From: Anaerolineae bacterium
GTDB lineage: Bacteria > Chloroflexota > Anaerolineae > JACRMK01
Direction of reading: 5' to 3'
Assembly: GCA_038198935.1 (NCBI GenBank)
Contig: JBBPZQ010000103.1
Span: 25,649-89,648, forward strand
DNA: 64,000 nucleotides
A program made the translations under genes and the position numbers. Under the pieces are notes generated by a model, which had not been told where the DNA came from, searched no databases, and saw only the letters and a program-made list of their open reading frames with translations. Of this stretch, positions 31,934 to 58,071 are shown piece by piece (the first letter of the stretch is position 1; each line of letters starts with the position of its first letter).

Positions 31934-31985
31934 GTCGTCGTCGCCCTCAGCGGCAGAGTGGATAGTTCGAGCGTTGCCCACTGCT
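31934..31985 (+). pseudogene. degenerate duplicate of the mnmA 5' end (encodes RVVVALSGRVDSSSVA)
   Basis: About 52 bp at roughly 85% identity to mnmA codons 6-22 at 32348..32400 (KVVVALSGGVDSSTTA). Confidence 0.55.
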
Positions 31986-32031
31986 CGCCTAACAGGAGCA
32001 GGATCAAGTAGATTCCGATTGGAGGCTTATC

Positions 32032-32319
32032 GTGATGAATCCAACGATGACGACAACTAATATCCTGACATTAGAAGAAGTCGCCGAGTATCTGCGACTA
32101 CCAAAAGAGACCGTAGAGCGTCAGGCATTGCGCGGTCAAATTCCAGGACGGCGTATCGAAGATACTTGGCGTTTCCTCAAAACGGCGATTGACGAATGGT
32201 TGCGTAGCCACGACAGCCGCGCGATTTTGTTACAGCAAGCAGGCGCATTAGCAGACGATGAGTCTTTGCCGCAACTGGTCGAGACGATTTACGTAGGGCG
32301 CGGACATTGCGCGTCGTGA
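32032..32319 (+). CDS. helix-turn-helix DNA-binding protein, excisionase/HTH_17 family
   Basis: 95 aa; ILTLEEVAEYLRLPKETVERQALRGQIPGRRI...WRF matches excisionase-family DNA-binding domains. Confidence 0.6.
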   Translation: MMNPTMTTTNILTLEEVAEYLRLPKETVERQALRGQIPGRRIEDTWRFLKTAIDEWLRSHDSRAILLQQAGALADDESLPQLVETIYVGRGHCAS

Positions 32320-32329
32320 ACTGAATGGA

Positions 32330-33445
32330 TTGAAGATGAGCACGAAAGTCGTCGTCGCCCTCAGCGGCGGCGTGGACAGTTCGACAACCGCCGCGCTGCT
32401 CGTCGAGCGCGGTTATGATGTCGTCGGCGTGATGATGCGCCTGTGGGCGGGCGTGGGGCCCGACGGCGGCGAGTACAATCGCTGCTGCTCGCCCGAAGCC
32501 GTCGCCGACGCGCGCTCGGTGTGCGTGCGCCTCGGCATTCCGTTTCACTTACTGAACTTTGAAGCGCCGTTCAAGCAATACGTCGTGGATTTCTTTCTCG
32601 ACGGCTACACGCGCGGCGTCACGCCGAATCCGTGTGTCGAATGCAATCGGCACGTCAAGTTCGACGCGCTGCTCAAGCAGGCGCTCGCGCTCGGCGCGGA
32701 TTATCTGGCGACAGGTCACTACGCGCGTGTGCAAACACTTCAAGATGAAAGCGTTCAGTTGTTGAAGGGTGTTGATCCCCTGAAGGATCAATCGTATGCG
32801 CTCTGCATGTTGACGCAGGCGCAACTCTCGCGTTCGATGTTTCCGCTCGGCGAGTTCACGAAGCAGCAGGTGCGGCAGATGGCGCGCGAGCGCAACATCA
32901 TCGTCGCCGAGAAGAGCGAGAGTCAGGAATTGTGTTTCGTGCAGAAAGACTATCGCGAGTTTGTGCAAGAGCAGCGCCCAGACGCGTTCGTGTCGGGCCC
33001 CATTCTCGATTTGCACGGCAATGTTGTAGGCGAGCACGATGGCTTGCCCGCGTACACGATTGGCCAGCGTAAGGGCTTGCATATACATCCTGAGCCGCAT
33101 CGAACGATGGCGGCCGGCGAGCCGCTGTATGTGGTTGACGTGGACGCTGCTCGCAATGCGCTGGTCGTTGGGCGCAAGCACCAGGTGTGGCAAGAGCACA
33201 TGCTTGTCACGCACATTAACTGGATCAGCGGAGAAGCGCCGAGCGAGACGCTTGAAGTGAACGTGAAGATTCGCTACAAGAGTGAAGAAAAGTCCGCGCG
33301 CGTCGAGCCGTTGGCTGATGCGAGCGCGCGCGTGACATTCGCCCAGCCACAGCGTGCGATCACCCCCGGTCAAGCAGCCGTGTTCTATCGTGGCGACGCT
33401 TGTCTGGGCGGCGGCATCATCACGCGCATGGGAGCGAGCCAATGA
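32330..33445 (+). CDS. mnmA: tRNA 2-thiouridine(34) synthase MnmA
   Basis: 371 aa; PP-loop VVVALSGGVDSS, catalytic Cys motifs (NPCVECN, ELCF). Confidence 0.9.
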   Translation: MKMSTKVVVALSGGVDSSTTAALLVERGYDVVGVMMRLWAGVGPDGGEYNRCCSPEAVADARSVCVRLGIPFHLLNFEAPFKQYVVDFFLDGYTRGVTPNPCVECNRHVKFDALLKQALALGADYLATGHYARVQTLQDESVQLLKGVDPLKDQSYALCMLTQAQLSRSMFPLGEFTKQQVRQMARERNIIVAEKSESQELCFVQKDYREFVQEQRPDAFVSGPILDLHGNVVGEHDGLPAYTIGQRKGLHIHPEPHRTMAAGEPLYVVDVDAARNALVVGRKHQVWQEHMLVTHINWISGEAPSETLEVNVKIRYKSEEKSARVEPLADASARVTFAQPQRAITPGQAAVFYRGDACLGGGIITRMGASQ

Positions 33446-33699
33446 TGGTGCCGACCGTCGTGCCCGCCGTGCTGCTCGGCGTGGTGAGCAGCACGATGCT
33501 GGCTGCCGTCGTGCATCTCACGCGCGGCAACACTATTCGCGACCTGATCGTGATCTGGATTGCCGTCTCGCTTGGCTTTTGGCTCGCGGCTGTCGCAGCC
33601 GCTTGGCTGCACGCGCCACTGTTCACGATTGGCGAGTTGCAATTGATCGCAGGATTGGTCGGCGGGATGATTGCCGCGCTGATTGTCACACGCAAGTGA
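33442..33699 (+). CDS. small membrane protein (2-3 TM helices)
   Basis: ATGA overlap with the mnmA stop; hydrophobic 85-aa product. Confidence 0.45.
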   Translation: MMVPTVVPAVLLGVVSSTMLAAVVHLTRGNTIRDLIVIWIAVSLGFWLAAVAAAWLHAPLFTIGELQLIAGLVGGMIAALIVTRK

Positions 33700-56584: not shown

Positions 56585-56666
56585 GGTGTGCCTCGTGTCA
56601 AAGACCTCACAGGCTTGCCCTGAGCACAGCGAAGGGTCTGAAGACCTGTGAGGTCTAGTGCCCTTC

Positions 56667-56852
56667 CTACTTTTTACTTTTCGCCTTCTTCGTTGTCTTC
56701 TCGTTCGGCAACTTCACCCCGCCCAGCAGCCACGCGATGATCGCCTTCTGCGCGTGCAGACGGTTCTCGGCTTGGTCGAACACGATCGAGTTCGGCGAAT
56801 CCATCACCTCATCGGTGATCTCTTCGCCGCGATGCGCGTGAGTACACAGTCC
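56667..56852 (-). pseudogene. duplicate of the ornithine carbamoyltransferase 3' end (last 61 codons)
   Basis: Translates to [60 protein letters not shown], against the arcB C-terminus [60 protein letters not shown]. Confidence 0.7.
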
Positions 56853-57098
56853 TCACGCAGCCATCTGCTCCAAGCGCACCGCAGGCCTGTCGGCATGCGT
56901 CGGTAAGCGCAGTGCGTTGGCGGGCAGCGTTACGACGGCAACCGTGTTGCCGAGCATGTCAAAGAATTCGACACTGTAGCCTGTCTCGCGTGCAGCGACA
57001 TTGTGACGCTCGACCACCGTTCCGACATCGCCAACGCGCAAGTGGTATTCGGGGACATCAAGCACGAGCACGACATCACTATAGAATTGAAAGTCCAA
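56853..57098 (-). CDS. small DUF4926-like protein
   Basis: 81 aa (MDFQFYSDVVLVLDVPEYHLRVGDVGTVVE...); lies exactly between the arcB stop and the arcB 3' fragment. Confidence 0.5.
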   Translation of the reverse strand: MDFQFYSDVVLVLDVPEYHLRVGDVGTVVERHNVAARETGYSVEFFDMLGNTVAVVTLPANALRLPTHADRPAVRLEQMAA

Positions 57099-57099
57099 T

Positions 57100-58071
57100 T
57101 TACTTCTTTGCCTTGCGCCTCACTGCCTTCTTCTCACTCGCCAACTTCACGCCCCCCAGCAGCCACGCGAGGATCGCTTTCTGCGCGTGCAGGCGGTTCT
57201 CGGCTTGGTCGAACACAATCGAGTTGGGCGAGTCGGCCACCGCGTCGGTGATCTCTTCGCCGCGATGGGCGGGCAGGCAGTGCATGATGAGCGCGCGTGA
57301 CGGCGCACTCTGCATCAGCGTCGCATTCAATTGATAATCTTTGAACGCCTTGCGTCGCACCTCGTTCTCCGCTTCTTGGCCCATACTCGTCCACACGTCG
57401 GTATAGACGACATCGGCATTGCGCAGCGCGTCGTGCGGGTCGGTTGTCCAGCGCACACGCGCGCCGCTGTCTTCGGAAAATTCCATCGCGCGCGCCATCA
57501 CCTCTTTGCTCGGCTTGTATGCTTCGGGTGTCGCGACGGTGATGTGCAGTCCGACTTTGCTCGCGCCGAACAGCAAGCCGTTCGCCATGTTGTAGCCATC
57601 GCCGATGAACACGAGTTGTTTGTCGCGCACATCTTTGCCGAGCTGCTCGCGGATGGTGAGCAGGTCTGCCATTACCTGACACGGATGATCGTAATCGCTT
57701 AAGCCATTGATGACCGGCACGCTCGCGTACTGCGCCATCGTTTCCAGATCGCGGTGTCGGAACACGCGCGCCATGATGCCCTGCGTGTAGCGGCTGAGCA
57801 CGCGCGCAATGTCGGGCACAGACTCGCGCTTGCCCATGCCGATCTCCGCGTCGGACAAATACAGTCCGCGCCCGCCGAGCTGATCCATGCCGACCTCGAA
57901 CGAGACGCGCGTGCGCAGCGACGGCTTCTGAAAATACAGCGCGAGCGTTTGTCCCGCGAGAATCGGTTTGTTACCGGCGCGCTTCCATTCGCGCTTCAAC
58001 TTTTCCGCGAGCTGCAGCAGGCCTTCGATTTCAGCAGGTGTGAGATCGGCGAGCGTGAGCAAGTGACGCAT
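57100..58071 (-). CDS. arcB: ornithine carbamoyltransferase
   Basis: Start MRHLLTLADL with AAGGAG RBS; STRTR, HCLP, DVVYTDVWTSMG motifs. Confidence 0.9.
   Translation of the reverse strand: MRHLLTLADLTPAEIEGLLQLAEKLKREWKRAGNKPILAGQTLALYFQKPSLRTRVSFEVGMDQLGGRGLYLSDAEIGMGKRESVPDIARVLSRYTQGIMARVFRHRDLETMAQYASVPVINGLSDYDHPCQVMADLLTIREQLGKDVRDKQLVFIGDGYNMANGLLFGASKVGLHITVATPEAYKPSKEVMARAMEFSEDSGARVRWTTDPHDALRNADVVYTDVWTSMGQEAENEVRRKAFKDYQLNATLMQSAPSRALIMHCLPAHRGEEITDAVADSPNSIVFDQAENRLHAQKAILAWLLGGVKLASEKKAVRRKAKK

Follow-up and report, generated by a model that had tools for sequence, protein, structure and literature searches.

Small toxin-antitoxin and defense-type genes between duplicated housekeeping gene ends in an Anaerolineae bacterium

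The stretch of DNA analyzed here, referred to as the window, comprises 64,000 nucleotides (nt) of contig JBBPZQ010000103.1 (positions 25,649 to 89,648; assembly GCA_038198935.1) from an Anaerolineae bacterium of the Chloroflexota. It contains the intact housekeeping genes mnmA, arcC, and arcB, and one end of each is present a second time as a nearby direct repeat, with one small gene between the two copies (Table 1). How small chromosomal toxin-antitoxin and defense modules move is poorly understood, and they are usually just called "horizontally transferred." Based on the repeats, their cargo, and the corresponding loci of related genomes, we consider that the three sites may be independent insertions of small cassettes, each of which would have replaced one end of a resident gene.

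RESULTS

Duplicated gene ends surround one small gene at each of three sites

Three pairs of direct repeats were detected both by a direct-repeat search and by self-blastn. The mnmA 5' pair (31934-31987 and 32348-32402) extends over 55 nt with 82% identity at a spacing of 414, and its first 21 nt are without mismatch. The arcC 5' pair (49797-49835 and 50643-50681) is 39 nt long with 92% identity and a spacing of 846, and the arcB 3' pair (56668-56838 and 57101-57271) is 171 nt long with 84% identity and a spacing of 433. Cores of 21-23 nt without mismatch lie inside the gene-end repeats. At each site, one small gene is located between the repeats, in all three cases on the strand of the host gene. 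At the two 5' sites (mnmA and arcC), the order is fragment, small co-oriented gene, and intact gene, and the arcB 3' site is the mirror image of this layout. The junctions are very tight: DUF4926 starts 1 nt past the arcB stop and stops 14 nt short of the arcB fragment, and no element debris was seen at the cassette junctions. A domain scan of the cassettes and of ~58 larger open reading frames (ORFs) of the window detected no recombinase, integrase, or transposase, and no tRNA gene was found in the window.

Table 1. Features of the mnmA, arcC, and arcB sites (window coordinates; fragments and remnants carry the names of their proposed origins)
Feature	Position	Strand	Details
mnmA 5' fragment (putative displaced, decaying original end)	31886-31987	+	Detectable repeat 31934-31987; possible native TTG start 31886
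HTH_17 gene (excisionase-family helix-turn-helix)	32032-32319	+	Pfam PF12728, E = 7.7e-13
Predicted 3' remnant of deleted PIN toxin gene, up to new mnmA start	32270-32335	+	Alignment to L149
Intact mnmA	32336-33445	+	Pfam tRNA_Me_trans, E = 5.8e-75; identical to P0241, 369 aa; repeat copy 32348-32402
Intact arcC (carbamate kinase)	48885-49829 (feature to 49835)	-	Pfam AA_kinase; TTG start at 49829
DUF3800-III structured RNA in arcC cassette	49864-49984	+	Rfam RF02962, full-length match
Frameshifted DUF3800 gene, protein cargo of arcC cassette	49942-50581	-	Two overlapping ORFs: 50108-50581 and 49942-50232
arcC 5' fragment (putative displaced end)	50632-50681	-	Ribosome-binding site (RBS) region, TTG start, ~11-15 codons; 14 nt past res stop codon
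Type III restriction-modification (R-M) island	50695-56584	-	res 50695-53361; DUF3800 53697-54479; mod 54476-56584
arcB 3' fragment (putative displaced end)	56668-56838	-	Last 56 codons and stop; begins exactly after HCLP motif
DUF4926 gene, cargo of arcB 3' cassette	56853-57098	-	81 aa; Pfam PF16277, E = 7.3e-18
Intact arcB (ornithine carbamoyltransferase)	57100-58071	-	Pfam OTCace and OTCace_N; identical to P0121, 323 aa

Short local direct repeats (at least 78% identity) were counted by one fixed search in the window, in 1.5 Mb of unrelated loci as controls, and in L144, a 21-kb locus of a relative. Five were detected in the 64-kb window compared with ~0.25 per 64 kb in the controls, a ~20-fold difference, and three were detected in L144. 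These results indicate that the gene-end repeat pattern exceeds chance. Furthermore, the junction from arcB through DUF4926 to the fragment was 100% identical in an independent Logan assembly (L001) and is therefore not an assembly artifact.

Several other repeats and motifs were set aside. A fourth local repeat of the window (21230-21341 and 23185-23294) is not a gene-end duplicate but a non-coding leader, with a terminator hairpin, that two genes share, and repeats near arcB in the loci L040 and L090 are the two GTPase domains of Der. A core such as GCC(C)AT(Y)G(G)CGGC is common to the boundaries of arcC and of arcB, but it is a lead only, as the pattern was derived post hoc and GCGGC is common.

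Empty and occupied sites are present in related genomes

Scans of a species-representative genome collection and of metagenomes gave no close relatives (best arcB match in the collection, 56%), and close relatives were drawn from a protein database with contig look-ups. The protein database contained a Chloroflexi clade with 75-87% identity for arcB and 73-79% for MnmA. The flanking synteny was as in the window, with the orders sugar transferase-arcB-arcC-glycosyltransferase and S15-iscS-mnmA-…-YtxH-YjeF. Empty sites were found at both loci. The arcB and arcC genes overlap (ATGA) in L145 and are 29 nt apart in L148, giving a spacer of 0-29 nt, and iscS and mnmA are directly adjacent in L151 and L152.

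Occupied sites were also found. L144 and L149 are two loci of one genome (GCA_030157145.1). Upstream of mnmA, L149 contains an 80-nt mnmA 5' fragment (80% identity to the intact copy), after which come HTH_17, PIN, and mnmA itself. Both mnmA copies have a plausible N-terminus of four residues, MVKR for the fragment and MGQR for the functional gene. In L144, the order is arcB, arcC 5' copy, 116-aa ORF, second arcC 5' copy, 81-aa ORF with a PIN gene, and arcC, and each of the tandem cassettes is preceded by the arcC RBS, start, and ~11 codons. All three arcC fragments (one in the window and two in L144, with three different cargoes) end within codons 10-15, but they represent only 2-3 events, two of which may be related. 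In L146, a degraded methyltransferase gene lies in the arcB-arcC spacer without duplication. The occupied sites in L144, L149, and L146 mark both the arcB-arcC junction and the 5' end of mnmA as insertion hotspots in the clade.

Additional insertions were observed at these loci. L149 carries two tandem DUF5678 modules between iscS and the mnmA fragment (7277-8583); the second is paired with a retropepsin-like 136-aa gene, and the first keeps only the initial ~60 nt of such a partner. The DUF5678 modules are an example of cassettes that stack and decay at the mnmA hotspot. In L144, two small genes without a Pfam match (150 and 137 aa) are inserted between arcC and the glycosyltransferase gene and are flanked by two copies of a 35-nt perfect hairpin (GAGACCCTTAGGGTTT…AAACCCTAAGGGTCTC; 13205-13238 and 14120-14154), so that cassette boundaries of another kind exist at this hotspot. 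L145 has a 145-nt direct repeat (12113-12256 and 12386-12529; 91% identity, spacing 273) just downstream of the glycosyltransferase gene that follows arcC.

Similar arrangements were encountered by chance in unrelated loci. In L122, an uncharacterized metagenome contig, the 5' end of a UPF0102/YraN-family gene occurs twice over 67 nt with 85% identity (3904-3970 versus 4742-4808), in the order UPF0102 5' copy, SOUL heme-binding gene, and intact UPF0102; the signature is the same, but the cargo is not toxin-antitoxin. In L060 (Natrinema salsiterrestre), the last ~16 arcB codons and stop occur again 155 nt downstream (10870-10958 versus 11025-11116; 79% over 94 nt) with no gene between them, and this archaeal repeat may be what a gene-end insertion left behind. 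These chance finds suggest that the gene-end signature is probably not confined to this Chloroflexi clade.

The mnmA cassette has lost its predicted toxin gene

The mnmA fragment of the window reads ...GRPRVVVALSGRVDSS and then breaks down; MnmA N-termini of relatives read, for instance, ...ERPRVVVAMSGG. The fragment spans the PP-loop region (…VVVALSGRVDSS) before it decays, with SGG changed to SGR plus a frameshift, and it is orthologous to the better-kept L149 fragment at 9181-9260 (ATG and 26 codons). Window positions 31931-32305 align to L149 9196-9562 (fragment and HTH_17) at 79% nucleotide identity, and window positions 32270-33426 align to L149 9939-11067, which are the last 60 nt of the PIN gene and mnmA. 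By eye, the two HTH_17 proteins are ~90% identical except for the last ~8 residues, the codons of which were changed in the window by the deletion junction. L149 contains the intact pair at the same site, with 2 nt between PIN and mnmA, whereas an adjacent toxin partner for HTH_17 is not present in the window, only the ~60-nt PIN remnant.

Since the window matches the L149 fragment and HTH_17 and then only the PIN 3' end, the HTH_17 gene is an orphan antitoxin gene left after loss of ~376 nt of a PIN toxin gene. This deletion also explains the 9-mer ATGGATTGA just upstream of mnmA (32325-32333), which lies within the PIN remnant. The 9-mer had been a candidate for a signal common to the window, L144, and L146 junctions, but its window copy simply belongs to the end of the deleted PIN gene, around the stop codon, and elsewhere it occurs at about chance frequency, so it is not a shared junction signal. 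The mnmA start codon and first codons (MSTK...) come from the cassette side.

Two STAND-type NTPase gene pairs lie near this site: an NB-ARC+TPR gene with an AAA_16 ATPase gene between iscS and the mnmA fragment (27863-31881), and an nSTAND1 gene with a WD40 protein gene beside YjeF (36223-40273). Neither pair is in the syntenic regions of L151, L149, and L148, and they are further accessory insertions with no detectable flanking duplications.

The arcC cassette combines a broken DUF3800 gene with a structured RNA

The window arcC was aligned to arcC of L144, L145, L146, and L148. The repeat copy at 49797-49835 covers -6 to +33 relative to the TTG start, and the arcC fragment shows 84% identity over 51 nt to arcC of L146. 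Pfam PF12686 matched the first of the two ORFs of the frameshifted DUF3800 gene (E = 5.4e-4). On the opposite strand, the RF02962 match scored 55.8 bits (gathering score 43.8; E = 1.5e-10), and the RNA is antisense to the DUF3800 gene and overlaps its 3' end. A DUF3800 gene and a DUF3800-family RNA motif above the gathering score are thus adjacent, as in the known pairing. The DUF3800-III RNA class is known only as DUF3800-gene-associated and has no known function (PMC5737381). The RNA looks intact, while its DUF3800 gene is broken.

The two arcB ends differ as orthologues do

At the arcB site, the repeat copy at 57101-57271 is the functional 3' end of intact arcB, and the reading frame of the fragment is kept in the codon alignment. 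Over a conserved stretch of 123 nt, the two ends are 88.6% identical, with 2, 2, and 10 differences at codon positions 1, 2, and 3, respectively. In the 123-nt comparison, the intact end is nearly as close to its L144 orthologue (87.0%) as it is to the fragment. Compared with L145, the fragment is 85.4% and the intact end 82.1% identical. The two ends therefore differ in the manner of orthologues, mainly at third codon positions with the frame kept, which indicates that one of them came from another lineage and did not arise by duplication in place; one arcB end is thus foreign. A diversity-generating retroelement was rejected for this repeat, as the mismatches involve all four bases and mostly third codon positions and are not adenine-specific, and no reverse transcriptase domain was found in the window ORFs scanned.

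The start of the DUF4926 gene is equivalent to that of its homologues (MDFQ...). Chloroflexi, cyanobacteria, and Planctomycetes very commonly encode DUF4926 proteins. A DUF6883 gene usually precedes the DUF4926 gene, whereas the DUF4926 gene of the window stands alone without DUF6883.

A type III R-M island lies between the arcB and arcC fragments

The arcB and arcC sites form a nested structure. On the minus strand, the order is arcB, DUF4926, arcB 3' fragment, mod, DUF3800, res, arcC 5' fragment, DUF3800 pseudogene with the RNA, and arcC. The island gave Pfam matches to ResIII, RE_endonuc, N6_N4_Mtase, and DUF3800 and PADLOC calls of REase_III, MTase_III, and DUF3800_VII. This 6-kb island fills the formerly short arcB-arcC spacer and is bordered by the displaced arcB and arcC ends. 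A single event, in which the R-M island came in on homology arms or an allelic replacement was resisted, is not favored; L144 and L149 show similar fragments without R-M genes, which makes three separate insertions the simpler reading. The methylase remnant of L146 is not a relic of the window mod, as the two are not homologous, and the two DUF3800 genes of the window were rejected as recent paralogues on comparison.

Short repeated elements were also observed within the island. An element of ~100 nt with long stretches of internal complementarity (AGCCAGTCGCTTGTAGG…CCTACAGGGGGCTGGC) occurs in two tandem copies (53434-53535 and 53637-53711) in the interval from the res start to the second DUF3800 stop codon, without an Rfam match; the copies may be another DUF3800-associated RNA or resemble repetitive extragenic palindromes (REP) or miniature inverted-repeat transposable elements (MITE). 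A ~100-nt palindromic element (CTCTCCCTCACCCC…GGGGTGAGGGAGAG; 55195-55294) and its partial copy (56242-56289) are both inside the continuous mod ORF and may be in-frame MITE/REP-like insertions.

A sequence-only reading of this DNA had reported three gene-end duplicates, at mnmA, arcC, and arcB, each with a small cargo gene between a degenerate and an intact gene end and without transposase or integrase. All three duplicates were recovered at the positions it gave by the repeat search and self-blastn, the Pfam-identified cargo gene was found at 3/3 sites, and the domain scan of the ~58 larger window ORFs agreed with it on the enzymes. Its cargo labels (HTH_17, DUF3800, and DUF4926) hold, with the additions that HTH_17 is the antitoxin left from an HTH_17-PIN pair and that the arcC cassette, correctly described as containing a DUF3800 pseudogene, also holds the DUF3800-III RNA. 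The arcB and arcC fragments that it described separately both exist and are the two borders of the R-M island.

Other features of the window

Two adjacent minus-strand genes without a Pfam match (20354-21361 and 21433-23061) share the ~110-nt leader set aside above. Its parts are a TAnAAT box resembling a promoter element, a conserved box of CATGTACGTCGGC, a GC-rich hairpin with a T run behind it, and an RBS. This layout resembles a cis-regulatory attenuator or a riboswitch-like leader common to both genes, and no Rfam match was obtained at the gathering threshold. Intergenic palindromes of GTCCTGAGTGCTGAGT-like units (43107-43161, 45966-46036, 40892-40950, and 14721-14764) are probably terminators or a genome-wide REP-like family. 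The region 4500-12200 contains a duplicated block of paralogues (RibD_C, DUF1801, and BNR-repeat proteins; 60-68% identity; 4734-5274 versus 8551-9106 and 6022-7418 versus 10762-12146), which is an old segmental duplication unrelated to the gene-end cassettes.

DISCUSSION

We consider it somewhat better than an even bet (a probability of roughly 0.55) that the three sites represent Campbell-type gene-end replacement, that is, three independent mini-cassette insertions at conserved housekeeping gene ends. Each cassette would arrive from another lineage bearing its own copy of the target gene end. At the 5' sites, this copy would span the RBS, the start codon, and the codons up to about 11-26, and at the arcB 3' site it would span what follows the HCLP motif, stop codon included. 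A single crossover in the homologous stretch, with the topology of Campbell integration of a putative circle of gene-end copy and cargo, would complete the resident gene with the incoming end and leave it intact. The original end of the resident gene would come to lie beyond the cargo, where it would no longer function and would form a direct repeat comparable to attL/attR. At the 5' sites, the left repeat would then consist of resident upstream sequence and the core followed by cassette DNA, and the right repeat of the cassette RBS, start, and first codons joined to the body of the resident gene; at arcB, the functional 3' end and DUF4926 would be one incoming block. The crossover could be catalyzed by a site-specific recombinase acting in trans or by host homologous recombination, with about equal likelihood. 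The cassettes probably lack promoters of their own and are co-oriented with their hosts. Their cargo comprises three unrelated accessory modules of the toxin-antitoxin/defense type: HTH_17-PIN with PIN since deleted, DUF4926, and DUF3800 with the DUF3800-III RNA.

Repeated gene-end-targeting insertion that restores the target had been proposed in the sequence-only reading, with decay of larger integrative elements as its alternative, and is backed by the reuse of sites, the orthologue-like arcB ends, and the empty sites; these last were found at arcB-arcC (L145 and L148) and iscS-mnmA (L151 and L152) in the comparison with relatives that it had suggested. That the cassettes are minimal is favored by several features: six cassettes at three sites are all at most 0.85 kb, with spacers of 1-30 nt and no element debris, and neither an integrase or transposase among the scanned ORFs nor a tRNA gene was found in the window. 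A preference for particular sites is favored by the arcC fragments ending in codons 10-15 in two genomes with three cargoes and by the reuse of a short segment in tandem.

Several observations weigh against gene-end replacement. No recombinase, circular form, or free cassette was found, and the three core sequences gave no match in viral contigs. The relatives at hand do not tell the native from the foreign arcB end. The coincidence of the arcC breakpoints amounts to 2-3 events, and copies 1 and 2 of L144, which have flanks in common, may have a joint origin. In the arcB-arcC spacer, the R-M island and the L146 methylase remnant occur without any duplication, which indicates more than one insertion route at this hotspot. 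No flanking gene-end repeats were found at DUF6883-DUF4926 modules in three other contexts or at a lone DUF4926 gene in one, so gene-end duplication is not a property of the DUF4926 cargo family. The small number of events, the two arcC copies with shared flanks, and the lack of a recombinase or free cassette among what was found speak in particular against a site-specific process.

It is possible, and we propose it only tentatively, that the cassettes belong to an undescribed system of promoterless toxin-antitoxin/defense mini-cassettes that use a portable gene-end copy as integration site and encode no recombinase. Such units would insert within operons and stack in tandem as integron cassettes do, without attC or IntI, and would be moved by host homologous recombination (excision between the repeats and re-entry by a single crossover) or by a recombinase in trans. 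In the literature searched, which was incomplete, no description of gene-end duplication as a signature of toxin-antitoxin/defense cassette insertion was found.

A doubtful alternative is that the cassettes are decay remnants of larger site-specific integrative elements, similar to cis-mobilizable elements (CIMEs): integrase-bearing elements would have entered at gene ends and later been deleted internally, leaving attL, attR, and an addictive toxin-antitoxin or defense gene. The attL/attR-like repeats, empty sites, and tandem accretion fit the behavior of integrative elements (tycheposons, 10.1101/2020.12.28.424599), and deletion within cassettes does occur, as PIN was lost, DUF4926 lacks DUF6883, and DUF3800 is frameshifted. 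However, the six cassettes at three sites in two genomes are uniformly at most 0.85 kb, with spacers of 1-30 nt and neither an integrase fragment nor debris, and no integrase was found among the scanned ORFs of the window. HTH_17 has an excisionase-type fold, but its pairing with a PIN toxin in L149 identifies it as an antitoxin and not an excisionase.

Still less probable is homology-facilitated illegitimate recombination after DNA uptake, a process established in naturally transformable bacteria. In this case, the donor would already have the cargo beside the gene, homology within the gene would serve as anchor, and an illegitimate join in the recipient copy would duplicate the recipient gene end. 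This explains a foreign gene end joined to cargo without a recombinase, and cargo beside these genes without duplication does exist (the window R-M island and the L146 methylase remnant). Illegitimate joins should scatter, however, whereas the arcC fragments from two genomes with three cargoes all end in codons 10-15, and tandem arrays reusing the same short segment are not predicted.

Duplication in place at insertion (a long target-site duplication or replication template switching) followed by decay of the dead copy would suit the visibly decayed mnmA fragment and the short arcC repeat (39 nt), but it is very improbable given the orthologue pattern at arcB (mainly third-position differences, frame kept, and a fragment nearer to L145 than the intact end), the lack of a transposase in the scanned window ORFs, and repeat lengths of 39-171 nt that are, to our knowledge, far longer than known target-site duplications.

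The gene-end replacement favored here bears on how small modules are gained. One Chloroflexi clade presents a defined and recurring signature, a foreign gene-end copy, cargo, and displaced native end, together with site reuse, tandem stacking, and relatives with empty sites. Should these units prove to be minimal and mobile, the ends of housekeeping genes would be landing pads that require no element-encoded recombinase, and an undescribed system of this kind, if real, would offer a concrete mechanism for the movement of toxin-antitoxin/defense modules between chromosomes. In addition, "pseudogene" scraps of core genes beside small ORFs may be used as markers of recent gene gain, and the possibility that core-gene ends are foreign matters for phylogenetics and the detection of recombination.

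Comparison with known systems

Among known systems, several share parts of this arrangement. In contact-dependent inhibition (CDI) and Rhs systems with orphan C-terminal toxin/immunity modules, an incoming 3' end with a small gene displaces the 3' end of the resident gene. The topology of arcB, DUF4926, and the arcB fragment is the same (new 3' end, small gene, and displaced old 3' fragment, with a foreign incoming end), but arcB encodes a metabolic enzyme whose replaced end keeps its function and is not a polymorphic toxin domain, and here 5' ends are affected as well. Type II toxin-antitoxin systems (VapBC-like HTH_17-PIN and DUF6883-DUF4926) share the cargo families, and relatives contain adjacent pairs in many unrelated contexts; in contrast, the window modules are cut to one gene, and gene-end duplication is not in the usual description of these systems. 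A Microcystis toxin-antitoxin pair is flanked by identical 152-bp repeats (PMC7935541), which differ in being intergenic rather than gene ends. As for transposons and insertion sequences, the repeats here (39-171 nt) are diverged, no transposase was found in the scanned ORFs, and self-blastn gave no inverted pair at the cassette ends, although no search aimed at terminal inverted repeats was made.

Integron cassettes are likewise single-gene, apparently promoterless, co-oriented, arranged in tandem at one site, expressed by host transcription from upstream, and often of toxin-antitoxin cargo. The present cassettes differ in having no attC, attI, or IntI, in being bounded by a housekeeping gene-end copy, and in occupying several unrelated sites; no attC-type Rfam match and no integrase were found in the window and its scanned ORFs, respectively.

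Integrative elements and CIMEs also have direct repeats from the target gene end flanking the insert, a restored target gene, uninterrupted sites in relatives, and tandem units separated by partial target copies, as in L144. Tandem accretion separated by partial target copies is described for tycheposon islands (10.1101/2020.12.28.424599). By contrast, the window cassettes have no integrase in or near them, are units of 0.4-0.85 kb with 1-2 genes, target the ends of protein-coding rather than tRNA genes, and carry homology of up to 171 nt. Because the defining integrase was sought in the cassettes and window ORFs and not found, they are not classed as members of this group, of which the integrative elements and their integrase-less derivatives are nevertheless the closest match.

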